DNA from: an uncultured archaeon
GTDB lineage: Archaea; Asgardarchaeota; Thorarchaeia; Thorarchaeales; CAZPUN01
Assembly: GCA_964589775.1 (NCBI GenBank)
Contig: CAZPUN010000020.1
Span: 30,001-62,000, forward strand
Direction: 5' to 3'
DNA: 32,000 nt
Position 1 is the first letter of the stretch. The number at the start of each line of letters is the position of its first letter. Positions 4,611 through 30,503 of this stretch are shown here, in pieces. The notes beneath the pieces are model-generated. The model searched no databases. It was not told the origin of the DNA and worked only from the letters and a program-made list of their open reading frames with translations. A program made the translations under genes and the position numbers.

Positions 4611-7025
4611 CTATTTATGCCTCCGAATATATCTCAATGATTCATTAAAGTATTTACCGATAAGAGACGCCATTGCAGGACCAACGATTTGCTCAATTTC
4701 ACCTGGAAGCAATTCCTCAATATTTGTTTTTGATGATAGTTTCCCAGATTGCCTCAAACGACTTATTTCACGATCAACAATTGTGCGTGCTTCAGACATT
4801 GAAACTGTTTGCTCTTTTTGTGATAAATGCGTTCGGATCGATGTTAAAGCCTTAGATAAGAAATATACAAGATTTTCATAATCGTTCGCAACAACTACGC
4901 TTGCAGAACCATGAATGGGACAATAATCTCCTGTTACAGTAGCACCACATTCTTTACACATTTTTATTCCACGTCGGTTCACAAGGAAATATGTAAGCAA
5001 GTTTGAGGCCTTCTGAGTATCGCGTTGAGTCCATTCAAGACCAGCTACACCACGCCTACCGGCACGGAATATTGATATCGCACGAGAATCGATCCAGCTT
5101 AGAATATCTACTCGCTTTCGTTTTTCCTCAAGTAAGCGTTTTTCTTCTTCAGCTCGCGCAAGCCATAAATCTTCTCTAATTGTTTTCTTCTTGAATTCTT
5201 GAACAATATACCGATGGGATATATCATAGCCAATTGCATAATTACGATAATCAAGCTTATCAATGGCTAAGGGCATGTCGACAATTCCAGCAAATACAGG
5301 ACTAGGTGTCGTCATGAGATCTTGCTTTGCGGTTTCGATAGATTGACTGCTAAATCGTGCCCATATGAACGATGCAATATCTAATGCAGGAAGATATGGT
5401 AAAACTATCTTGAATTCACGTGCTGTATTATTTAGAGCGTCTGTAAGAACTTCTTCACGTGCAGGTTGTAGCTCAGATATAGTATCCTCAAATATCCACT
5501 TTATTACAGATTTTACACGTTCCAAATCTTTACGTGCTTTTAGATAAACTTCAATGACTCTACTAAGATGTCTTAAAAAGTCACCAATAGACATATATGC
5601 AACATCAAGAACGATTTTATCTCCAACTTTCGAGCTTGTCATTGCAGACTGTAATTCGGAAATAGATTTGAAACCTAATTTGTTTAGTGATTCAGTTACT
5701 TTTTGTTCAAGTTCAAGCATGGACTTTAATTTATCAGGAGGCGGAATAGTGACAATTTTTGATAATTCAGATAATACTTGATTTTCAATTCCAAATAGTT
5801 TTTCGCGAGGCTTTAGCAAAAAGTCGATATGGATCTGCATTAATGCATCTCCACGAAGACCACGTGCGAGCAATCTAGGCTTTACTTTCTTCTCAAGCGA
5901 TTGACGTATTTTTGCAAGATGTCGTAGATCGCGTTGAAGAACATCCATATCCTCTACAAAATCAAGTTCAATAGTTGTACCACCTGAGGAACCAGTTGCC
6001 TTCAAAGTTTCAAAAAGCTGTGAAGCTGTAGAAATTCCAGAGCGTCTCAGATCCATCATAACTTCAGACTTTGAAATATCAAATAACGCTGCAATTGCAT
6101 CAATAGTTTTATCGCGAAGTGATTCAAAAACTTCAAGTAATGCATTACGAATTATATTACTGAATAGTGTATCAATGTTATCAAAATTAATTTCTTTATC
6201 AATATATTCAGAAATCTTGGAAATTATACTTAATTTAATTTTGTACATTCCAGCCAGTACATCTATAGAATATTGATTTCGCTCGAGATTTTCAATGATT
6301 GATTTTATAATATCATCTTTCACTTTACTAAATTTATCCCACGTTAATGTTTCTTGAAGCATAGATTCAGTAAACTTCAATCTGTTAAACACCGCAATAA
6401 ATGTGGAAATTTCAATTACCTCTTCTTCATGACGACGAAGCATTTCTTGCTTTAGACTCAGAGATGTTTCTTTTAGACTGGATGCCTTTTGATATAATTT
6501 ATTCTTATAATACTTAGACCAACCGGTGATGTATCCGATTAGATCAATTATTAAAAAGGAGGGATACTTATTAGCATTTTCAGAAAGATATGCTTCTAAA
6601 ATTTCATTTACTTTATTAATTTGCTCTTCACGCATACGAGTTGATTTCAAACTATCTATTATGTCGAGCATAATTTTTATTTCATCTATTGCAATACGAA
6701 TTTCATCAATATGGTGATTATTTACTAAAAATCGAATCTCTGAACGAAGTAATGATTTTTCTTCCTCAATTTTTTTCTGCTGCTCTTCTGCATTTAGTTG
6801 AGACTCCGAAATATCGAATAAGCGAACACCTTGAAAATGATAAAGATACATTGCAGCAAAATCTAACAGCGCATCATTTAGAGTAATACGATCACTGCCC
6901 ACAAATTGTATCAGATTTCTACGGTCGCGAGAAGACCGCATATGAAGGGGTAATGCCTCTGTGAGGATTAGTTCTTTTCCTGCTTCACGCATTTGACGAG
7001 ACCGGATAATATTTACCATGGACAT
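4611..7025 (-). CDS. Large alpha-helical hypothetical protein (804 aa) with C-terminal Zn ribbon
   Basis: Long uninterrupted ORF; CKEC-x8-CPIH motif; coiled-coil segment; start overlaps the upstream stop (TAATG). Confidence 0.85.
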   Translation of the reverse strand: MSMVNIIRSRQMREAGKELILTEALPLHMRSSRDRRNLIQFVGSDRITLNDALLDFAAMYLYHFQGVRLFDISESQLNAEEQQKKIEEEKSLLRSEIRFLVNNHHIDEIRIAIDEIKIMLDIIDSLKSTRMREEQINKVNEILEAYLSENANKYPSFLIIDLIGYITGWSKYYKNKLYQKASSLKETSLSLKQEMLRRHEEEVIEISTFIAVFNRLKFTESMLQETLTWDKFSKVKDDIIKSIIENLERNQYSIDVLAGMYKIKLSIISKISEYIDKEINFDNIDTLFSNIIRNALLEVFESLRDKTIDAIAALFDISKSEVMMDLRRSGISTASQLFETLKATGSSGGTTIELDFVEDMDVLQRDLRHLAKIRQSLEKKVKPRLLARGLRGDALMQIHIDFLLKPREKLFGIENQVLSELSKIVTIPPPDKLKSMLELEQKVTESLNKLGFKSISELQSAMTSSKVGDKIVLDVAYMSIGDFLRHLSRVIEVYLKARKDLERVKSVIKWIFEDTISELQPAREEVLTDALNNTAREFKIVLPYLPALDIASFIWARFSSQSIETAKQDLMTTPSPVFAGIVDMPLAIDKLDYRNYAIGYDISHRYIVQEFKKKTIREDLWLARAEEEKRLLEEKRKRVDILSWIDSRAISIFRAGRRGVAGLEWTQRDTQKASNLLTYFLVNRRGIKMCKECGATVTGDYCPIHGSASVVVANDYENLVYFLSKALTSIRTHLSQKEQTVSMSEARTIVDREISRLRQSGKLSSKTNIEELLPGEIEQIVGPAMASLIGKYFNESLRYIRRHK

Positions 7026-9664
7026 TATTGAACCCTCCTGAAATAGTTGTTTCCTGCACGCATTATCATTTTACCATCCTTAAATTCATATTCGATAATG
7101 TATTTCAAATCATGATCATTAATATCCCTAAGACGTACAACATAGCTCTGTACATATAGATTTCCTAATGCTTTTGCACCATGTTCAATAATGGATGCGA
7201 TCATATCTTCTTTTGATGTCAATCCAAGTTCTGACAAAACTGGTAACTTGTTTTCCTTCAATAATTTGATTTTATTCTCGATTTCTCTTTGAATTCGGAT
7301 TCGCTCAGATGAAATTTCATTGTATAGATTTCCAATTACATCAGCAATAATCTCGAAAGTGTATAGTCGCTCAGGAGGTAAAGGCTCCTTAGGTAATGGA
7401 AGATCTTTCAATTCCTCAGGAACAACATAAGATGCGCGAACCTCATCTAATGTAGGAACATGAACTGAAGAGGGATCTGGAAACTCAGGTTCCGGCGGGG
7501 GCTCCTCCCCAATTTCTAAAGCGGCTCTAACCTGTGCCTGATAAAGCTCTTTAGCTTGCTGCAATTCAACTGATAATTTTTGCTTCTCATCCATGGCTTT
7601 CTTGAGAGCTGTTTCATAGATCTGCTGAATTTCTTTTTCACGTGCCCAGCGTCTCTTTTCATTCTCTTGTTGGACTTTTTGCACTTCAGCCTCCCAAGCC
7701 TCTATCAGTTTATCGTATGTAGTACGTAATAGCTTGGCTTTCTGAAGAATTGGAGTGACTGTATCTTCAAGAGTGATTATTTGCTCAGATGAGTTCTTGA
7801 GAAATGCGAACCATTCATTTAAAACTGTTAATAGTTCCCCATCAATATTTGTCTTTCCAAACAAATCTAAAAGATTTTGAATATCATGCATTTCAGATTC
7901 TGATACATCAAAATCTTGGGCAATAATTGACATTGCTGAAACAAATTCACTTGAACTTTTAATATCCATATTAAGATCAAGCAACCGCGATATCGTCTCC
8001 CTTGAACTTAAAAGATCAAGTATATGAGGCGAAACTCCAGACAATCTAGCTTTAATTTCATTTAGAATTGTTTTTGCATCTTCAATATCAGCCGCAGATA
8101 CTCCGGGTTTGTCTACAATTGAGCTGTCATTCTCAATTTTATCTAGGGAGATATTTATGAATTCATCTAGTGTAATTAGATCATCTATCTTTAGTGAATT
8201 CATCTTTTCAAATACACGAGATAAAATGTTCAAACTGATTTCTACAGGAGTTTTATTAAATTGACCATAATAGTCTACACGACCAAGTTCAGAGATAATA
8301 TTCTCATCAAAATAATTTTTCAGCCTATCCGAAATTATATCATGAACTGATTGTGTATCTTCGAAACTTGGTTGAATATTCTCAGTAATATTATCGATTA
8401 TCGCCTTAGTCATACTCATAATTAGGAATCGTTTCAATTCATATGCAAAATAGGAAGCCACTTTCTGAGCGTAGGAAGTGAAATAGACCAGAGTACCCTT
8501 TAATTGCCATGCTTTAAATGAATTGGAAGAATCAAGTACTTTGTAAGACTTGATTAAATTCTGGGCAAATAATAGAGCAATGCCACGCTTAATTCCATCA
8601 AACTCTGAACCACGAGATTTTATTTCTTCTTGTAATTTATTAATATGGTCTTCAGGAGTACCTTCAAACCCACTTCGAAGATGTTCGTCAACAAGATCTT
8701 TGAAAGATTCGCTCGCGGACTTGAACTCTTCTGCATATTCGTTTGCAGCCTTAAAATATGTGTCCAGCGTCGTTAATTTTAGATTCGAAAAATCAATAAA
8801 ACGCATAAATCCTTCAACAGCAATTTTTATAATATCAATCTCTTCTTGCGTGTAGGAATACTTGTTTATGAATTCTAAAATTTCTCGACCTGCAGAAGGT
8901 ATATAAACAGCCAAATTCTGAATAGCTGATAAGCCAAGTAATCTGTATCGTAGATGTTGTAATGCTTTTGATTTTACCTTAAATGGATTGAGAAACGTGA
9001 TATTATCAATTTTATCAACAATTGATGCTGCAGGTCTAAATGAGTAATCTTCTAAGTAAGAACCTTGAACTTCTAAATCAACATCAACATCTGTAATTCT
9101 CAATTTTCGTGTATCATAGTCTTCTTGATATTCACGGTCCATAACATTACTATAGATTATTGTGGCAAAACGATCTGCAAATGTCGAAAGAACCGATAAT
9201 TTTTGATCTTCAGATAAACCAGATAATTCGGAGGCAATATCAATATCATTCATCTTTCGTGTAATTGCATCGCCATCTAATATTAACTTTCTAGGGTCTA
9301 CAATGCCGCGCTCCCATTCTAAAACAGTGAGAAAACCACTTGTTTCCAAAGAACTACCGCGAGTCAATAGCAAGGTTTCTGGAAAAATTCTATGACTTGA
9401 TTCGCTCATTATTTTCCATTCAATCGATTCCAACTCGAATTGCGATGACTTTTTCAAACTTTCATAAATGAAATTAAATATCGACGAAATACTCATAACA
9501 ACATCTTCAGCTCTATTGGACAGTTCTCGCCCAGCTCCACGAGCGCCACCAATTGATGACCCATCCTTTGTAGTATAACCAATTATTGCTGCGGAAGCAC
9601 GCCTAATCTCTTCCACTGTGCTCGGTGATGAAACACTTTTCTTCGAGACCCTAGTTATGGACAA
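7025..9664 (-). CDS. Large hypothetical protein (879 aa) with coiled coil and Pro/Glu-rich segment
   Basis: Long uninterrupted ORF; TTG start with strong GGAGGAG SD (9671-9677); EEPPPEPEFPDP...PLPKEPLPPE after a long charged helix. Confidence 0.85.
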   Translation of the reverse strand: MSITRVSKKSVSSPSTVEEIRRASAAIIGYTTKDGSSIGGARGAGRELSNRAEDVVMSISSIFNFIYESLKKSSQFELESIEWKIMSESSHRIFPETLLLTRGSSLETSGFLTVLEWERGIVDPRKLILDGDAITRKMNDIDIASELSGLSEDQKLSVLSTFADRFATIIYSNVMDREYQEDYDTRKLRITDVDVDLEVQGSYLEDYSFRPAASIVDKIDNITFLNPFKVKSKALQHLRYRLLGLSAIQNLAVYIPSAGREILEFINKYSYTQEEIDIIKIAVEGFMRFIDFSNLKLTTLDTYFKAANEYAEEFKSASESFKDLVDEHLRSGFEGTPEDHINKLQEEIKSRGSEFDGIKRGIALLFAQNLIKSYKVLDSSNSFKAWQLKGTLVYFTSYAQKVASYFAYELKRFLIMSMTKAIIDNITENIQPSFEDTQSVHDIISDRLKNYFDENIISELGRVDYYGQFNKTPVEISLNILSRVFEKMNSLKIDDLITLDEFINISLDKIENDSSIVDKPGVSAADIEDAKTILNEIKARLSGVSPHILDLLSSRETISRLLDLNMDIKSSSEFVSAMSIIAQDFDVSESEMHDIQNLLDLFGKTNIDGELLTVLNEWFAFLKNSSEQIITLEDTVTPILQKAKLLRTTYDKLIEAWEAEVQKVQQENEKRRWAREKEIQQIYETALKKAMDEKQKLSVELQQAKELYQAQVRAALEIGEEPPPEPEFPDPSSVHVPTLDEVRASYVVPEELKDLPLPKEPLPPERLYTFEIIADVIGNLYNEISSERIRIQREIENKIKLLKENKLPVLSELGLTSKEDMIASIIEHGAKALGNLYVQSYVVRLRDINDHDLKYIIEYEFKDGKMIMRAGNNYFRRVQ

Positions 9665-9730: not shown

Positions 9731-10669
9731 TCAAGTTTTCAATACCCAAACGTTCTTTTCCAATTCCGAAACAAGTCCAGCCGTTGTAAGAAATCTTAAT
9801 GCCACTAGGATTGTTGTTCTAAGACCTACACGATAAATTCGCGGAATCGGAAATAGACCCATGACATATAGATCATTTTCAATTTGGTCAAGGTCCGCAC
9901 TACCACGAGTTTCCAAAATATCCAAAATCGATTTCTGTAGAGTTTTTACGCCTTCAATACTTTGCTTAATTACACCCTTTGCATCATCAAATACGTATGT
10001 TTCATCATGAGTGGGTAAAACATAGTCAATATTTATCTTAGAAAGTGCATTTAATGTATTCAACTTTCGTACAAAATCACCAGTTAAATCCATATAGAAT
10101 AATTCAGGATGATTTGGAATTTGCGCAAATTCATCCCCAGAAAAGACAAGTTTTTCGGATGGCGAATACAAGATTATATGATCGTTCGAGTGCCCTCCAG
10201 AATATATAACAGCAAGTTTCATGGCACCAACAATAATTTCGGACCCATGAGATACTGTTTGATCAACATTTACAGGTGGAAAATCAAAATTCAATGGATG
10301 CCCGGGTCTTTTAGGTAATGATGCTTCGATAAATCCAATTGCAAATCGCTTCTTGTATGCCTTTCTGGGATCTTTCAATGTTTCTACAGCATTTTCGTGA
10401 GCGATAATTTTTGCTTTTGTCTTTTTAGCTAGCCATTTTAGTCCGCCTGCATGCATTGGATGTGAATGAGTAATTACAATCTGTGTAACATCTTTTTCCG
10501 GATTTTTACCGAGATCTTTTATGGCATCAATAATTGCATTTTTTGGAAAATCTGTCGAACCTGCATCAATAATAGTTACTTTATCTTCAACAATTAGATA
10601 TACTGAGCTGTAACCGACATCGCTCTGAAAATGCCCATAAATTCGGTAAACGTTATCTTTAATTTCCAT
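9731..10669 (-). CDS. MBL-fold metallo-hydrolase with C-terminal winged-helix-like extension
   Basis: IIDAG, THSHPMHAGG (variant of HxHxDH), GGHSNDH, FSGD, LPTHD; ATG at 10669 preferred over 10693. Confidence 0.85.
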   Translation of the reverse strand: MEIKDNVYRIYGHFQSDVGYSSVYLIVEDKVTIIDAGSTDFPKNAIIDAIKDLGKNPEKDVTQIVITHSHPMHAGGLKWLAKKTKAKIIAHENAVETLKDPRKAYKKRFAIGFIEASLPKRPGHPLNFDFPPVNVDQTVSHGSEIIVGAMKLAVIYSGGHSNDHIILYSPSEKLVFSGDEFAQIPNHPELFYMDLTGDFVRKLNTLNALSKINIDYVLPTHDETYVFDDAKGVIKQSIEGVKTLQKSILDILETRGSADLDQIENDLYVMGLFPIPRIYRVGLRTTILVALRFLTTAGLVSELEKNVWVLKT

Positions 10670-10773
10670 TAATGACAAAGCTTCCCACCACATTAATATG
10701 TATAAACATGTTCCTTATATTGATTTTCAATTGATAAAGGAGTTGCCAAAAACTGAAGCGCTTTACGGTAGAA

Positions 10774-11832
10774 ATGGTTACAAAATTAATAAAAGAATCA
10801 CGCGAACAGCTCGGATTTAACAAACATGGACATCCAAGTGTGGATGATGTCATCTATGATGCAGAATCAGATACATTATACATTATAGTTCCCGATAGAC
10901 CAGAAAAAAGCGCAATAGTAGGAAAGGGCGGTTGGGCAATAGCTGAGTTGCGTAAGAAGTTAGATGTATGGAGTGTATCTGTACATACTACGATAGATCT
11001 GACAATTAAAAAAATGCGAGTACAGAATAGTATCAATTATTTAAAGAATGAACTAAAAGACCATCTAAAACCACAAGTACACGAATGCCTATTAAAAACA
11101 ATATTACCATTATTAGAAGATGAATTGAAATATCCATTAAATAAGAGAAAAATAAATCCGATCCATGAATGTAATATAAAAGTTGGAGTCGCACTTTCAG
11201 ATGGCCCAGACAGTATGGCAACATTAGCACTTGCAAAAAGAATCGGACTCAACCCAGATGCTTTCACGGTTGATTTAGGACCGTTATTTATACCACCTAA
11301 AGTTAACAAAAGAATTGATGAAATACTTGCTGCACACGATATTAATAGGTATTTTATACCAAGACCGACAGGACATACGGAAATTCAAGAAAAAGCACGA
11401 AAAGGAAGAATTCATCCATGTGGTGCATGCCACGATCTAACAACTCAAGCATTGTACAATTATGCTAAAGAAAATAAATATGACATAATAATGTTTGGAG
11501 AATTTTTACCTACTGGCCGATATGCGTTTGAAATCATAGATAATGATCTCTTGCGAATTAACTTACCCGCAGCTCTTGCATTGAATAAAATTGATACGAT
11601 CAAACTTGCCGAAAGCATGGGTGTTGACAAAATTTCAGGAAAATTTGGTTGCCAATTCTTGAATATGGTGCATATTGTGTATCCCGAGATGCGATACCCT
11701 TCAATAAAAAGAGTACTTCGAGAGGCACACGCAGGAGTATTACCACCATCAATCGCTTTGAAATATATAAAAAGTATAATAGTACATCGTAAAAATCCAA
11801 AAGCAGAAGCAAAGTTCCGAGGCGAAGGATAA
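10774..11832 (+). CDS. Archaeal PP-loop ATPase with N-terminal KH-like domain (COG1365-like)
   Basis: DRPEKSAIVGKGG KH GxxG loop; VALSDGPDS PP-loop; HPCGAC and FGC cysteines; RINLPA. Confidence 0.82.
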   Translation: MVTKLIKESREQLGFNKHGHPSVDDVIYDAESDTLYIIVPDRPEKSAIVGKGGWAIAELRKKLDVWSVSVHTTIDLTIKKMRVQNSINYLKNELKDHLKPQVHECLLKTILPLLEDELKYPLNKRKINPIHECNIKVGVALSDGPDSMATLALAKRIGLNPDAFTVDLGPLFIPPKVNKRIDEILAAHDINRYFIPRPTGHTEIQEKARKGRIHPCGACHDLTTQALYNYAKENKYDIIMFGEFLPTGRYAFEIIDNDLLRINLPAALALNKIDTIKLAESMGVDKISGKFGCQFLNMVHIVYPEMRYPSIKRVLREAHAGVLPPSIALKYIKSIIVHRKNPKAEAKFRGEG

Positions 11833-12296
11833 TTACAACAGGTGCATATATTCTAATATTGAAATTAAGTGAAGAAAAAACAATTCAAATTGGAAAGTTA
11901 GGAACATACAGATTCCGTAAAGGATTTTATATCTATGTAGGTTCAGCAATGGGAAAATATTCAACTTCTTTATTTGGTAGGATCAACAGACATATATCAG
12001 AGCAAAAGAAAAAATTCTGGCACATCGACTTTTTGCTTATGCAATCAAAAATTATGGATATATTTTGGGTAATTTCCAGAGAAAATATCGAATGCGAATT
12101 AAATAAACAGATTTTAAATTGTAATGTACAGATACCAGTAAATGGATTTGGCTCGTCAGATTGCAAATATCACTGTAAAGCACACTTGAGTTTTACAACA
12201 GATTATGATAAAATCAGATACTGCATAAAACAAATAATAAGTAAATATGGAGAGTTTGGCATTTTCAATCTAGCCAGACCCAATAATACTAATTAG
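11829..12296 (+). CDS. GIY-YIG/Uri superfamily endonuclease (DUF123)
   Basis: GAYILIL...GFYIYVGSA, RINRH, WHIDFL, IEC, GFGSSDC, HL motifs; start uncertain (ATA 11829 or TTG 11859). Confidence 0.88.
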   Translation: MITTGAYILILKLSEEKTIQIGKLGTYRFRKGFYIYVGSAMGKYSTSLFGRINRHISEQKKKFWHIDFLLMQSKIMDIFWVISRENIECELNKQILNCNVQIPVNGFGSSDCKYHCKAHLSFTTDYDKIRYCIKQIISKYGEFGIFNLARPNNTN

Positions 12297-14528: not shown

Positions 14529-15224
14529 ATGGAAATTCTGACTGGAAAAAACATATCAAAAATCTATAATAAGAAAAATCGAAAGATCACTGCGGTAAAA
14601 AACGCAAACATTTCAGTAAATGCTGGAGAATTAATCATAATATTTGGGATCAGCGGGTCAGGAAAAAGTACGTTACTAAGAATATTAGGTACTATCGAAA
14701 AACCAACAACGGGAGAGTTAATAATCGACAGTAAGAATATAACAGACACCTCATATGCGGAACTAGCAAAAATTCGAAGACATACCATAAGTTTTGTATT
14801 CCAAAAACACAATTTAATGCCATATCTCACAGTATATGAAAATTTATTATTACGCACTGCAATAGCCGGAATTCCAAAGAATGAAGCAAAAAAACGCATA
14901 GAGCATGAACTAAAAGAACTTAACATTCTCAATTTAATTGATCGATATCCGGATGAAATTTCCGCGGGTCAATATCAGAGAGTGGCAGTAGCACGTGCAA
15001 TAATTACAAATCCAAGAATAATTTTAGCGGATGAGCCTACTGCTATGCTAGATGAAAATATGGCAAAAACGCTAATGGACATTTTACAAAAAATCGCAAT
15101 AGAGCGTAATTGTGCAATAATTATGACATCTACAAAAACAAATATTCTTAACTACGCAACAAAAATGTACGAAATGAAAAATGGAATTTTAAAATTAAAA
15201 CAAGATGTGAGAAATAATGGATGA
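14529..15224 (+). CDS. ABC transporter ATP-binding protein (LolD/MacB-like)
   Basis: Walker A GISGSGKS, Q-loop FVFQ, signature ISAGQ, Walker B ILADEPT. Confidence 0.92.
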   Translation: MEILTGKNISKIYNKKNRKITAVKNANISVNAGELIIIFGISGSGKSTLLRILGTIEKPTTGELIIDSKNITDTSYAELAKIRRHTISFVFQKHNLMPYLTVYENLLLRTAIAGIPKNEAKKRIEHELKELNILNLIDRYPDEISAGQYQRVAVARAIITNPRIILADEPTAMLDENMAKTLMDILQKIAIERNCAIIMTSTKTNILNYATKMYEMKNGILKLKQDVRNNG

Positions 15225-17040
15225 AACCGCAAAAGTAAAAGAAACTGTACGTCTATATCGAAAGCTTTGGAGATTTCCTTCAGCAAAAGTCATCTTTAGC
15301 GCAGCAATTATTACATTAGTTATTGGTTCAATAATCATAACATTCTTAACAAAGGGAGTAGTTTCCGAATCATTTTTAATATCTTCAGTTATGTATTTTG
15401 GAATTATATTATTCATTCCGCCAATAATTGATTTCATCTTAGCTTTTGGCCAGAGAAATGTTTTGAGCTTAAGACGATTTATGGCAATTTCATATATTAA
15501 TTTCATAATGATTATTATATTTACAATTATCGCATTTCCATTTTATATAGGTACTATGACAGGCTATGCGAAGCTATTGCTATTCTCAATAGGGTTTAAC
15601 ACATCTCTGAGATTTCTTGCGATACTTGCAATGTGGAGAAGAACAGATATTTTTGGGATACTTGCATCAGCATCACATGGATTAATCGCTCTCACGTCAG
15701 CAAAAATATTAGATGTGTATAATGCATTAATATTTGATATTCCGACCAATTGGCTTATAATTGGATTCTTAATTATGTGCATTTTCGCGATTTCTGAGTC
15801 AATTCTATTCTACAGAGTAAATAAACCATTCATAGAAGAGTTAAATGTATCAGGATTAACATTCTTCAGAGGATTTTCTGCAGTATATTTAGCAAATGAA
15901 CCAAAATTATTCGAGGAAGCAATGGACAAAATCGGTGAAAACCAAGATTTGAAAATATCACGCATAACAATTTGGAATGAAAATTCAGAAAAATACATCG
16001 GGTCGATCATAGTTCCCGAGGTACATCCAGGTCCGTTCAGAGAAGTTGGCAGTAGCGCAATGCCTGTTAGAATAATAGAAGCACTAGAAGATGATACACA
16101 AGCAATATCGGTAGTACATGGAACTTGCACCCATGCACAAAATCTTACAAAATCTGAACAAATTCAAACACTAATAGACTCATTAAAATCGATGAATAAA
16201 GAGAATATCTCGGAGGATATACACGAAATCGTGACGACACAGCATAATCAATTCAAGTTTGTTTCTTGGAGGATTGGAAATAAAATTTTCTTAATTACAA
16301 CAAGAGCACCAGAACCTACAGATGATATTGAATTGGAACTGGGAAAAAAGGCTATTGACAATATTAGAACGCGTATTCCAGACGCAGAAGAAATCATTAT
16401 TGTTGATGCACATAATTGTATAGTTCAGGATACCCCGAGTTTGTCGGCAGATAGTGAAGAAGCAGCAGATTTTATTGATGCATGTACTCGAGCAGCAGAA
16501 ATCGCATGGAATACAAAAATTGTAAATACACAAATAGGAACCGCACAAAATAGAAACCTCAGATATAGTCTTGATGAAGGATTTGGCAAAGGAGGTATTA
16601 CGGTATTTTCGATAATGCAGAAGGGTAAGAAAATTGCACTTATATCTATTGATGGGAACAATGCAAATTGCGAGTTCAGAAAGCATCTAATTACAAAGGT
16701 AAAAGAACGTGGGTATGATATTGTAGAACTAATGACCTCAGACACGCATACAGTTAATGCGATCTCAATGAATTCTAAAGGATATCTACCTGTTGGAACA
16801 ATAGATCAAGAACAACTAATTACAGATATTTTAGAACTATTAGATATTGCCGAGAAAAACACCCAAGATGCAAAAATTATGGTACATACAGAGATAAATA
16901 AATTAAAAGTATATGGGCGTAATGGATTTGAAAGGTTAACAAAGTGTGTGGTAAAAGCAGCGCATATTGCAAAGAACACGGGAATTGCAGTTTCACTCAT
17001 TGCAATGGGATTGAGCATAATAATCTTAATGATGATTTGA
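15217..17040 (+). CDS. DUF2070 family membrane protein
   Basis: N-terminal multi-TM region; VHPGPF, HGTCTH, VDAHN, DGNN and TSDTH motifs; C-terminal TM helix. Confidence 0.85.
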   Translation: MDETAKVKETVRLYRKLWRFPSAKVIFSAAIITLVIGSIIITFLTKGVVSESFLISSVMYFGIILFIPPIIDFILAFGQRNVLSLRRFMAISYINFIMIIIFTIIAFPFYIGTMTGYAKLLLFSIGFNTSLRFLAILAMWRRTDIFGILASASHGLIALTSAKILDVYNALIFDIPTNWLIIGFLIMCIFAISESILFYRVNKPFIEELNVSGLTFFRGFSAVYLANEPKLFEEAMDKIGENQDLKISRITIWNENSEKYIGSIIVPEVHPGPFREVGSSAMPVRIIEALEDDTQAISVVHGTCTHAQNLTKSEQIQTLIDSLKSMNKENISEDIHEIVTTQHNQFKFVSWRIGNKIFLITTRAPEPTDDIELELGKKAIDNIRTRIPDAEEIIIVDAHNCIVQDTPSLSADSEEAADFIDACTRAAEIAWNTKIVNTQIGTAQNRNLRYSLDEGFGKGGITVFSIMQKGKKIALISIDGNNANCEFRKHLITKVKERGYDIVELMTSDTHTVNAISMNSKGYLPVGTIDQEQLITDILELLDIAEKNTQDAKIMVHTEINKLKVYGRNGFERLTKCVVKAAHIAKNTGIAVSLIAMGLSIIILMMI

Positions 17041-17043
17041 GAT

Positions 17044-18228
17044 GTGGTAAATATGAGATATGTGGCATATATCATGATAATTCTATCGATCATTTCGCAA
17101 ATACCCGTCTTACACTCAAATGCCACATATCAATCTAATATAGAAATTAGAGGCACAGATACAGAAAATACAATATTTTTAAATATTACAGACAGAACTG
17201 GAATAATAAAAATAAACACTACAATTCACAATATAGAATTAATAGATATTAAACACAACATAGATAACTATGATTACGTACTAACATATTTGGGAAGAAA
17301 TACTACAAATTTCATAGTTGTAGATGTATCCACAAATCAATCAGCAACGCAATTCGAAGTTGAAATTTTATTATATAGAAATGGCAAAATGAATTCTAAA
17401 GATGCGTTTTGTACAAATTTAAATATACAACTCTATGGTCATGTTCAGATATTAAATACAATAACACCAATGCCAATGATTATCGAAAATTATATACCAA
17501 AGGGGTTCATACCGGATTACAACGATACCGATTTTATTATTGATATTTATGGAATATATATTACACCCATTGGTGGCACAATTAATCGAGATATTTATTA
17601 CATGCGTGTATATCCAATATCTTTTTCAAAGGAAGATTCAAAAATATTGATCTGGGCATTGGGAGTATCGAGAACTAATGGAACAATATATGCAATTAAA
17701 ATTGAACAAAATAAAGAAATGACATTTATTAATCTAGGAACTGGAAGAATTGATGAACGTTTCCCGACTATAATTGAGGAAATATCAGCGATTCGCCTTG
17801 TTCGTAGAGAAATAGTACTTGGAGACACCGAAAAACCAAATGTAGAGGTACAAAACCTTCAGAACAACAGCCTCATAGAATTTGAATATCAAATTATCAT
17901 AAATGCAAGTGATGATATCGCTATAAAATACATTATTATCAGAATAGATGATGATTATTACTTGACATTATTTAATACGCCATATACCTTTAAAATAGAT
18001 CCGTCAAACTATAAAGAGGGATTACACAAAATAACTATAATTGCAGTAGATTATACACGTAAGACAACAGAAATAAACCTCGAAATCGAATTTAGAAATG
18101 GAATACTACACCAAATTCCAACTGCATTCCTAAAAACAGCAATAATAATAACAGGACTCACAATAATTTATGTTGTAATTGATAAATTAGAGAAAAAACA
18201 ACAAATAGTGAAGAGTAATGGTTTATAG
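17044..18228 (+). CDS. Secreted/surface protein with Ig-like domain and C-terminal membrane anchor
   Basis: Signal-peptide-like N-terminus; many N-x-S/T sequons; DTEKPNV...ASDD...EGLHKITIIAVD Ig-like pattern; C-terminal TM plus basic tail. Confidence 0.8.
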   Translation: MVNMRYVAYIMIILSIISQIPVLHSNATYQSNIEIRGTDTENTIFLNITDRTGIIKINTTIHNIELIDIKHNIDNYDYVLTYLGRNTTNFIVVDVSTNQSATQFEVEILLYRNGKMNSKDAFCTNLNIQLYGHVQILNTITPMPMIIENYIPKGFIPDYNDTDFIIDIYGIYITPIGGTINRDIYYMRVYPISFSKEDSKILIWALGVSRTNGTIYAIKIEQNKEMTFINLGTGRIDERFPTIIEEISAIRLVRREIVLGDTEKPNVEVQNLQNNSLIEFEYQIIINASDDIAIKYIIIRIDDDYYLTLFNTPYTFKIDPSNYKEGLHKITIIAVDYTRKTTEINLEIEFRNGILHQIPTAFLKTAIIITGLTIIYVVIDKLEKKQQIVKSNGL

Positions 18229-19459
18229 AAGTATAACAATTAAAGATGTCGTATATGGATATATTGACTTTGAAGATGAATGTAGTGAAATAGTAGATTC
18301 GGACCCGATTCAAAAATTTAGAAGTGTAAAAAGTCCTCTTAGTATCCATTATGTATATCCCGGAGCCGAAATTTCACAATTTAGTCATATATTGGGAAAT
18401 GCAAAAGTTGCACAAGAATTCATGGAATATATGTCTGCAGATGAAGAAACAAAGTTCAAGGCACAAATGGTAGGATTATTTTCTGAAGCTTACCTGGGTC
18501 CATTTGTATATGCTTTTGATGAATTATTAGAAGAAGAAAATATAACACGTGACATGGTATTAGAAAAAATCATAACAAAGACAGAAATAAAAGATATTCT
18601 AAATAAAAAGGGATATACATACAGGGACATACTAAAATGGATCAATGAAGGCATCGACATAAGAGGTTCTACAATCAATCTAATAAACACAATACTTAGT
18701 ATCAATTTAGTGGACCGATTAGAACGTGATGATTATTTTACAGGGTTGCGATACCAAATAGAACATCATAGACTATATTTAATGACATTTCCCATTGAGA
18801 ACAAGCTTGCATTAGCAAGAACTTACATGAACAGTCTTGAGGCTTTTATATTTTCAGCAAATAACTTATTCACAGAAGTATATTACAATCCAAAGATAAG
18901 ATCTGCAGATTTAATGGCACTTGAATTACTAAAGTTAGTGAAAGATGAATTTCAGTTATTAGATTATAATGATGTTGATAAATACGTATTTGAAGATGAT
19001 GGAACATTACAATTAAAGATTATGCGGTTAGATAATTCAAAAAACGATTATATTTTAGCAAAATCAATTTTAAATGACCTTAGAAATTCTAGATTATATC
19101 CGCGAGTATATGAGGCAATACTTCCTGAAAATGCAAAAACAGAGGTCCTGGAAAATTACAAAACACGAAGAGAACTTGAAGAAGAAATAGCTGCCACAGG
19201 AAATGTAGACCCACGTAGGATACACATAGATTTCCCAAGAAGAAAATCTGTCGCATATTATCCAGATCGGTATGAATGGGAGAAATTCCATTTGTTTGAA
19301 AAATACGGTGATGAAATTAAGCTTATGATGTTCAAAGATGAAAGTCCTGCTACAGAATCTCTACAAAAATATACAAAAATCGTAAGAGTCTATGCTCCAA
19401 AGGAATATAAAAATAAAATAAAAAATGCAGAAAAAATAATTCAAGAAGCCGTGTTTTAG
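18218..19459 (+). CDS. HD-superfamily (COG1078/SAMHD1-like) protein with degenerate active site
   Basis: IKDVVYGYI, YVYPGA, FSHILG, GPF, DRLERD and EVYYNPKIRSA align with family motifs, but HD is replaced by SE. Confidence 0.8.
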   Translation: MVYRSITIKDVVYGYIDFEDECSEIVDSDPIQKFRSVKSPLSIHYVYPGAEISQFSHILGNAKVAQEFMEYMSADEETKFKAQMVGLFSEAYLGPFVYAFDELLEEENITRDMVLEKIITKTEIKDILNKKGYTYRDILKWINEGIDIRGSTINLINTILSINLVDRLERDDYFTGLRYQIEHHRLYLMTFPIENKLALARTYMNSLEAFIFSANNLFTEVYYNPKIRSADLMALELLKLVKDEFQLLDYNDVDKYVFEDDGTLQLKIMRLDNSKNDYILAKSILNDLRNSRLYPRVYEAILPENAKTEVLENYKTRRELEEEIAATGNVDPRRIHIDFPRRKSVAYYPDRYEWEKFHLFEKYGDEIKLMMFKDESPATESLQKYTKIVRVYAPKEYKNKIKNAEKIIQEAVF

Positions 19460-29816: not shown

Positions 29817-30503
29817 CTATTTCTTTCGCTCTGCTTCAGCTTCCTTTTTTAGTTCTTCAAGCTCTCTCAAAATATCATCACTATCTGAGCTACTCTCAGA
29901 TTTCTTAGATTCTTTTTCATGGGTCTTTTCAGCAGGTTCTTTATCGCTTGCAATAGATGGTAAGCTAGCTTCTTTTTCGAGCGCAATTTCAGTTTCAAGT
30001 CGAACTAATTCAGAATCAACTTCGCTTTCAACATCAACATCCTCAGAGGCAAACCCAACATCAGTTGCAAGAATATCGCTTGCATCCATAATTAAACCGA
30101 TAGACGCTTGTATATCCATAAGCATCTGTTGCATTTTGGCAGGGTCAAGCATTCTAACAGATTCATCCAGAAGAACTTTTGCATGGGATAGAGCTACTCC
30201 AACTTCCTCAGTATCAGCTGCAGTTTGAATTGCAAGAATTGTATCCTCTAGATTCATAATTTGTTGACTGTATCGTTTTCTAATTATTTCCAATGCCTTT
30301 TTTCGTTTCAAATATTGCTTTGCTTGCTCTACATCACCTTTTGCTATAGATTCTTTTGCTAATCTACGAAGATTAGAAATATCCTCGTCAGTCTTTCTTT
30401 TCCGAAGAGTGAGCTTATTAATTGTTGACCTAATTTTCATAATAGCTTGATCTCGTTCCTTAGATTTATCAGCGTAAATGAAACCTTTTAGCTTATCCCA
30501 CAT
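29817..30503 (-). CDS. ESCRT-III / Snf7 family protein (Vps20/32/60-like)
   Basis: Basic N-terminal hairpin with AKQYLKRKKALE...NLEDTILAIQTA; acidic C-half with DVDVESEVDSELVRLE; amphipathic N-terminus MWDKLKGFI; C-terminal helix DDILRELEELKK. Confidence 0.88.
   Translation of the reverse strand: MWDKLKGFIYADKSKERDQAIMKIRSTINKLTLRKRKTDEDISNLRRLAKESIAKGDVEQAKQYLKRKKALEIIRKRYSQQIMNLEDTILAIQTAADTEEVGVALSHAKVLLDESVRMLDPAKMQQMLMDIQASIGLIMDASDILATDVGFASEDVDVESEVDSELVRLETEIALEKEASLPSIASDKEPAEKTHEKESKKSESSSDSDDILRELEELKKEAEAERKK

Follow-up and report, generated by a model that had tools for sequence, protein, structure and literature searches.

What do two long, adjoining genes of no recognisable family encode in an Asgard archaeon, and do their products work together? 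We addressed this question in a window of 32,000 nucleotides, the whole stretch of DNA that was analysed (positions 30,001 to 62,000 of contig CAZPUN010000020.1, assembly GCA_964589775.1), from an uncultured archaeon of the Thorarchaeales. The two genes, hereafter P1 and P2, lie head to tail on the minus strand and encode proteins of 879 and 804 residues. The original prediction, made from the window's sequence, took them for a translationally coupled pair of giant, undescribed proteins forming a heteromeric complex; "giant" overstates proteins of 100 and 93 kDa. We find that P1 starts with a longin-fold domain in its structural model, that P1 and P2 occur, and are lost, together, and that a predicted interface joins the longin domain to the most conserved part of P2. 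On balance, P1 and P2 probably form an obligate heteromeric, longin-headed scaffold that occurs in four Asgard classes (Loki, Thor, Jord and Frey) and has not been described previously.

The features from which this pairing had been proposed are present in the sequence. The junction reads ...CAA TAA TG..., with the stop codon of P1 (TAA, 7027-7025) and the ATG of P2 (7025-7023) overlapping by 1 nt in the TAATG at 7027-7023, and a GGAGGAG Shine-Dalgarno sequence precedes P1. The P1 start is a TTG codon, which had gone unmentioned; it is supported by its homologues, whose alignments begin at residues 2-8. Both proteins are soluble and mostly helical, as had been claimed, and contain no transmembrane-like segment (largest Kyte-Doolittle value in a 19-residue window, 0.93 for P1 and 1.39 for P2). 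That the two genes are real follows from their full-length homologues in more than 220 genomes.

Neither sequence family carries any annotation. Nothing in P1 or P2 reached a curated cut-off in Pfam or NCBIfam, PADLOC returned zero matches, and the same scans of P1, P2 and all members of their alignments gave sub-threshold or generic coiled-coil matches only. Searching PDB sequences with both proteins, as single sequences or as profiles, produced nothing usable, searches of the ESM Atlas by features and by structure gave TM values of at most 0.27, and Foldseek searches of the PDB with the whole P1 and P2 models found no match at E ≤ 0.001. No enzyme family was matched, in line with the lack of an enzyme motif noted in the original prediction. 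Comparison of P2 with adaptin and importin gave no match above noise, although whole-model searches of an 804-residue protein can miss single domains. P1 and P2 were also considered as paralogues, an idea dropped at a profile-profile hhalign probability of 3.6%. No mention of the orthologues' locus tags or accessions was found in the papers searched, and a term search of two papers on Asgard longins (PMC10933270, PMC12290439) found no pair of this kind.

To determine how widely the genes occur, 400 Asgard genomes were surveyed, using a single sequence and a 30-sequence profile for P1 and a single sequence for P2. The single sequence detected P1 in 173 genomes and the profile in 230; P2 was detected in 224. 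Both occur in the same families (named by exact sequence look-ups): f2 (Thorarchaeota; P1 profile in 78 and P2 in 79 of 86 genomes), f15 (Jordarchaeales; each in 5 of 5), f16 (Freyarchaeum deiterrae; each in 5 of 6), f19 (each in 2 of 2), f20 (each in the one genome), f21 (P1 profile in 14 and P2 in 13 of 14) and f22 (Promethearchaeota metagenome-assembled genomes; P1 profile in 122 and P2 in 117 of 135). The other sampled families, the larger of which are f8 (31 genomes), f10 (12), f11 (22), f13 (12) and f14 (19), yielded nothing beyond single weak matches in f8 and f23. The pair is nearly universal in Loki- and Thorarchaeia. Close homologues of both proteins are named as hypothetical proteins of Thorarchaeota or Promethearchaeota, and a P2 profile searched against 1.84 billion protein representatives gave 102 matches, comprising full-length proteins of about 800 residues, fragments and three surface proteins that are taken up below.

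Family f21 includes Lokiarchaeum ossiferum (NEF87_002841) and Promethearchaeum syntrophicum MK-D1, whose DSAG12_00802 is P2 by exact sequence; DSAG12_00801 is its P1, as read from its position after a major facilitator superfamily (MFS) gene. Transcript levels of the two in MK-D1 are alike, at 163 (DSAG12_00801) and 200 (DSAG12_00802) reads per kilobase per million, and neither has a COG, arCOG or KEGG assignment or is flagged as a eukaryotic signature protein (Imachi et al., 2020; PMC7015854, Supplementary Table 3).

We next asked whether the genes are linked, using 18 loci fetched from six families, in which 16 junctions were measured. P1 followed by P2, adjacent and co-oriented, was observed in all fetched loci of five families, and at 15 of the 16 junctions the P1 stop lies -8 to +17 nt from the P2 start. 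Both genes are missing from genus g16 (three genomes, 96-99% complete) and from genome G333. At these sites the surroundings persist: the loci of G387 and G389 (both g16) and of G333 keep a metallo-beta-lactamase (MBL)-fold gene, two Fae-like genes and an M20 peptidase gene, the g16 loci also keep a DUF123 gene and the gene for a 352-residue protein of no family, and in g16 89 nt are left where P1-P2 would be expected. As the pair is present in the other three g10 genomes, P1-P2 has been excised cleanly, as a unit, from intact synteny at least twice. This joint loss is the strongest genetic evidence for the pair. No conserved third gene accompanies it; this possibility was dropped, as the MBL-fold gene is found in the Thor-type order only, a HEAT-repeat gene in Jordarchaeales only and a Roadblock gene in f22 only.

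Confident structural models of both proteins were obtained with AlphaFold2 (AF2) from 30-sequence alignments (predicted local distance difference test, pLDDT, 84.2 and predicted template modelling score, pTM, 0.72 for P1; 85.3 and 0.68 for P2). In its model, P1 starts with a longin-fold domain (residues 14-180), with the elements in the order alpha0-beta1-beta2-alpha1-beta3-beta4-beta5-alpha2-alpha3 (DSSP: E25-31, E37-43, H52-74, E76-86, E97-104, E109-116, H124-147, H152-175). The predicted five-stranded sheet lies between alpha1 and alpha2/alpha3, the longin topology. Dozens of longin and roadblock chains match this domain over its whole span in VIA-align; longin chains align up to residues 173-183, whereas roadblock chains stop at about 140-148. 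Most of the invariant residues of P1 (T16, G39, P95, F162 and R165) fall within it. The Gly-rich alpha/beta N-terminus of the original prediction corresponds to beta1 and beta2 (residues 25-45), its longin identity having escaped recognition. Longin and roadblock Pfam models (Longin, Robl_LC7, Sybindin, Sedlin_N, Clat_adaptor_s, Mon1/Ccz1 and others) matched none of 25 N-domains at E ≤ 5, and a profile search of PDB sequences found nothing relevant.

Contact between the two proteins was assessed by co-folding three chains, P1 14-228, P1 800-879 and P2 100-804, each supplied as an alignment. The complex score (ipSAE) was 0.69, 0.69 and 0.68 in three runs, compared with 0.00 for the best of three controls; 58 of 80 solved complexes and 2 of 110 mismatched pairs attained this mark in calibration, counts that apply only roughly here given the self-supplied alignments and the three-chain design. 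The runs share at least 98% of contacts, with a partner pLDDT of at least 72. The confident predicted interface places alpha2/alpha3 of the longin domain (P1 136-176, with the invariant R165) against P2 518-525 and 575-597, including the nearly invariant E525, S575, L586 and Y596, and conservation is higher at the P2 interface residues than elsewhere in P2 (0.537 versus 0.421; random-set p = 0.003). The P1 800-879 chain lies outside this interface and has no bearing either way. Taken as a model, the fragment co-fold supports P1-P2 binding without showing it.

Several observations weigh against a heteromer of the kind we favor. P1 and P2 lie on different contigs in f19. Flanking genes are kept within families only and, as no neighbour is conserved beyond family level, gene context does not support a cellular role; nor was a GTPase gene linked to the pair in the fetched loci. 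Sliding the interface pattern along P2 finds equal conservation at 5.8% of positions, and on the P1 side the conservation of the interface does not exceed that of the remaining longin domain. The co-fold was made on fragments, and truncated P1 presents surfaces that the full protein buries; the co-fold score is the model's own confidence rather than a measurement. Finally, the prediction has P2 occupying the alpha2/alpha3 face of the longin. A rival view is that P1 and P2 are simply co-transcribed neighbours that do not bind each other, which would fit with the unlinked genes of f19 and with the 7 of 44 blindly picked neighbours that passed the same complex test. We nevertheless consider this very unlikely, since it leaves unaccounted for the fixed order and adjacency across the phylum, the repeated joint excision, the occurrence in the same families, the score of 0.69 against 0.00 for controls and the position of the predicted interface on the most conserved stretch of P2. 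Opposite subunit charge, considered as a further sign of pairing, was dropped because the difference in isoelectric point (pI) is not conserved.

The remainder of P1 raises the possibility of a different kind of function. Past the longin domain, the model has a two-strand beta-hairpin (194-224), a helical body, a long coiled-coil hairpin made of an 86-residue helix (632-717), a Pro/Glu-rich loop of 49 residues (718-766) and a return helix (767-804), and a C-terminus with three strands within 837-872; the charged coiled coil, Pro/Glu-rich segment and beta-rich C-terminus read from the sequence are all recovered. The 194-224 hairpin and the C-terminal strands may together form a second, split roadblock-like domain, as suggested by the order of secondary structure and one weak TagF alignment (P1 24-861). 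With the hairpin arm as its working part, the pair could play a structural role based on its coiled coil, as a tether, a coat or a scaffold associated with the cytoskeleton, as the original prediction proposed. The length of the arm, with its helices and Pro/Glu-rich tip, the large size and helical make-up of both proteins, and a HEAT-repeat (adaptin-N/Cnd1-like) gene that in Jordarchaeales shares an operon with P2 and overlaps its end are consistent with such a role. However, the arm is about 110 residues shorter, and without the Pro-rich tip, in f19, f21 and f22 (by segment lengths) while the rest of both proteins is conserved, which argues that the arm is not the conserved function; no CATCHR, adaptin, coat or nucleoporin fold matched above noise, and no polymer-forming domain was found. 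We regard a structural element as distinctly unlikely.

P2 is all-helical in its model save for a small ribbon at 688-712. This is the C3H zinc ribbon that had been proposed, formed by the only three cysteines of P2 (C690, C693 and C702) and H705. Together with helix-turn-helix (HTH)-like helices, it could make P2 a DNA- or RNA-binding protein and the pair a nucleic-acid-associated factor. Against this, P2 of f22 and of one f21 genus has no ribbon, a basic pI is not a shared property of P2 (values are 5-6 in the Thor type), all HTH-like matches are below cut-offs, and the neighbouring genes vary between lineages and lie on other strands, making this reading highly improbable.

We then compared the pair with known longin systems. 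Eukaryotes use the longin fold in regulators of membrane traffic, and in complexes of the Mon1-Ccz1 type both subunits contain longins, whose LD1 domains pair to form the GTPase site. Set against the tri-longin Rab guanine nucleotide exchange factors (GEFs) Mon1-Ccz1, Fuzzy-Inturned/CPLANE and BLOC-3, P1 has one clear longin instead of three, and P2, all-helical apart from its ribbon, has none; the pair shares no sequence similarity with them, and its predicted contact joins longin alpha2/alpha3 to a helical partner rather than longin to longin. The longin GTPase-activating protein (GAP) complexes FLCN-FNIP, GATOR1 Nprl2-Nprl3 and C9orf72-SMCR8 resemble P1-P2 in being built of two subunits and in combining an N-terminal longin with a large C-terminal region. 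Longin GAPs of the FLCN, Nprl2 and SMCR8 type are marked by a C-terminal DENN domain and by a GP motif with an arginine finger in the beta1-beta2 loop. P1 differs in having no DENN (alpha/beta) domain, its remainder being helical in the model, and in that its partner has no longin. In the AP and COPI cores, the longins of sigma, mu-N, zeta- and delta-COP are seated on alpha-solenoid large subunits; P1-P2 is similar in that the P1 longin is predicted to sit on a large helical partner, and a HEAT/adaptin-N-like gene follows P2 in Jordarchaeales. With the Asgard 'FLCN/SMCR8-type' longins of PMC12290439, the pair shares its Asgard setting. Small Asgard roadblock/longin proteins (for example 8yqg and 9jue; PMC10933270) have 120-270 residues and form homodimers, whereas here the longin stands at the front of a 100-kDa protein whose partner, of 93 kDa, has an unmatched fold.

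Another possible reading is a strict small-GTPase regulator, in which the P1 longin, held by P2, would give an Asgard GTPase of the Rab, Arf or Rag kind its GEF or GAP platform, in the manner of Mon1-Ccz1 and FLCN-FNIP. P2 lacks the longin that would complete the canonical two-longin platform. The GP motif that PMC12290439 places in the beta1-beta2 loop of GAP-type longins was not found in P1, where the loop is TTKDGSS and the family consensus has no Gly-Pro. There is also no linked GTPase gene, and the Roadblock gene near P1-P2 in f22 looks like shared synteny rather than an operon, since one locus has P1-P2 in the opposite orientation to it. Given the partner without a longin, the absent motif and the missing linkage, a broader role is more likely than a strict GEF or GAP one, which we consider rather unlikely.

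In the reading that we prefer, P1 and P2 come together as the subunits of a heteromeric complex in the cytoplasm, which would be about 193 kDa at 1:1. What would be expected of obligate partners was found: conserved adjacency, co-occurrence with joint loss and, in prediction, an interface. Translational coupling would supply the subunits in matched amounts, longin alpha2/alpha3 with R165 is predicted to dock on P2 518-525 and 575-597, and the helical bodies would build the scaffold. By analogy with eukaryotic longin complexes, the pair would most likely serve a small GTPase or a membrane-proximal partner as an adaptor or platform. Two parts would be accessory: the long Pro/Glu-tipped arm, confined to Thor-type lineages, and the zinc ribbon, which f22 lacks. 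The core of the original prediction, a stoichiometric heteromeric complex of two undescribed proteins, is supported by conserved order, tight junctions, joint loss and the domain-level co-fold, and none of the outcomes named as speaking against it (a match to known enzymes, homologues that never co-occur, no interface) was seen. The specific roles that it offered (coat, tether or cytoskeleton) find no particular support, while the coiled-coil arm and zinc ribbon that it had listed as features vary between lineages and do not belong to that core.

One part of P2 occurs outside the pair. Three of the P2-profile matches are Thorarchaeota proteins annotated as SBBP or DUF7948 beta-propellers (L060:6001-8841, P0121; P0126; P0155). 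They are of the single-pass surface type, with a signal peptide (in full-length members), a beta-propeller and TSP3 repeats, one transmembrane helix, basic residues and a cytoplasmic tail of 110-130 residues that aligns without gaps to P2 366-445 (hhalign probability 96.6%, 38% identity over 80 columns). Identity of the tails to the P2 of the window is 31-33%, about as close as that of other Thor-type P2 modules. Extra copies of the module are rare: of 87 genomes of the order, two carry them (at G328:C13:18918-19208 and G319:C1:3056043-3056306), and a k-mer search for further receptor tails recovered the query alone. The module is therefore a portable unit, which sits just under the membrane in the SBBP proteins, and in P2 it may act as an autonomous docking element. 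We treat this as a lead toward a membrane-proximal role for P1-P2, not as evidence of one. A more specific proposal, that the pair is the core of a sub-membrane longin-headed machine of about 190 kDa, plugged into the tails of surface receptors through the shared module, exclusive to Loki-, Thor-, Jord- and Freyarchaeia and unparalleled in other archaea, bacteria and eukaryotes, seems to us unlikely; if true, it would amount to a prokaryotic link of surface proteins to an intracellular longin platform that evolved independently of eukaryotic adaptors.

The longin fold and longin-containing heteromers are known already; what is new is the architecture, in which a helical protein of 100 kDa is headed by a single longin and its 93-kDa partner has an unmatched fold. 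The idea that Asgard archaea hold precursors of membrane-trafficking regulation draws on 'eukaryotic signature' folds, longin and roadblock domains among them. To our knowledge, the Asgard longin and roadblock proteins studied so far are small and stand alone, whereas P1-P2 would put a longin at the head of a large two-subunit assembly. As the pair was not found in the other sampled Asgard families, a lineage innovation is more likely than a eukaryote precursor, and this absence argues against a direct tie to eukaryote origins; such a lineage-restricted pair matters for interpreting inventories of 'eukaryote-like' Asgard genes. P2 is of interest in its own right, as a protein of some 800 residues that is modelled with confidence yet has no fold relative that could be detected. 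Being expressed in MK-D1 and present in both cultured Lokiarchaeia, the pair is open to purification, imaging and interaction screens.

Table 1. Positions in the window of the P1-P2 genes, their signals and domains, and neighbouring genes.
Feature	Position	Strand	Basis or remarks
P1 gene	7025-9664	minus	open reading frame listing; 879 aa, TTG start, 100.4 kDa, pI 4.9, zero Cys
P2 gene	4611-7025	minus	open reading frame listing; 804 aa, ATG start, 92.7 kDa
Shine-Dalgarno GGAGGAG of P1	9671-9677	minus	direct sequence reading; 6 nt ahead of TTG at 9664-9662
AGGAGGG of P2 itself	7033-7039	minus	direct sequence reading
P1 residues 14-180, longin-fold domain	9125-9625	minus	AF2 model
P1 residues 136-176, longin helices alpha2/alpha3, predicted P2-binding surface	9137-9259	minus	complex prediction; includes invariant R165
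P1 residues 231-631, helical body	7772-8974	minus	AF2 model
P1 residues 632-804, long coiled-coil hairpin	7253-7771	minus	AF2 model
P1 residues 718-766, Pro/Glu-rich tip of hairpin	7367-7513	minus	AF2 model
P1 residues 818-879, conserved C-terminal helix and three-stranded sheet	7028-7213	minus	AF2 model and conservation
P2 residues 366-445, helical module, consensus VKP..L.ARG.R ... VPPPEE	5691-5930	minus	also tail of Thorarchaeota surface proteins
P2 residues 518-597, most conserved P2 stretch, predicted P1-binding surface (E525, S575, L586, Y596)	5235-5474	minus	conservation and complex prediction
P2 residues 688-712, C3H zinc ribbon (C690, C693, C702, H705)	4890-4964	minus	AF2 model and sequence
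TATA-like TTTATA	9697-9692		in 66-nt gap before P1
TATA-like TTTTTAT	9723-9717		in 66-nt gap before P1
MBL-fold gene (Lactamase_B/ODP)	9731-10693	minus	66 nt upstream of P1
Gene for 352-aa protein of no family	10774-11832	plus	divergent from MBL-fold gene
DUF123 gene	11859-12296	plus	divergent from MBL-fold gene
239-aa open reading frame	1546-2265	plus	zero Pfam matches
Four co-oriented genes	14529-19459	plus	Pfam scan

Several further observations concern the surroundings of the pair. In the window, the gap between P1 and the MBL-fold gene on the same strand holds two TATA-like elements (Table 1), which suggest that P1-P2 has its own promoter. The block made up of the MBL-fold gene, the gene for the 352-residue protein and the DUF123 gene is syntenic throughout the Thor-type order and survives where P1-P2 has been lost. 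A defence-island reading of the locus was dropped in view of the PADLOC result and the stable chromosomal synteny.

In Jordarchaeales, a gene for a 404-residue HEAT-repeat protein directly follows P2 on the same strand, giving a lineage-specific three-gene operon (L036:9812-11026, plus strand; L046:2927-4141 and L047:3002-4201, minus strand); its best match is HEAT_2 (E 1.7e-32), with Cnd1 and Adaptin_N scoring lower, and the L036 copy shares 4 nt with the end of P2. Among Loki-type loci of f22, L051:3894-15748 contains two complete P1-P2 pairs about 5 kb apart, the second P2 missing about 68 residues within 360-484, and L052:2176-10104 contains two P1 genes and one P2. Eleven Loki-type loci (f21 and f22) have one or two copies of a gene for a 240-270-residue protein just downstream of P2, mostly convergent (for example L037:10181-11909 and L040:9716-10432); one member has a weak PD-(D/E)XK match (E 2.9e-4), and the arrangement is probably family-level synteny.

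Elsewhere in the window, the 239-residue open reading frame stands at the syntenic position that is taken by an AIRC (PurE-like) gene in Thor relatives. The run of four co-oriented genes encodes an ABC ATPase, a DUF2070 protein (Pfam E 1e-101), a protein with a Big_7 Ig-like domain and one with an HD_assoc_2 region.

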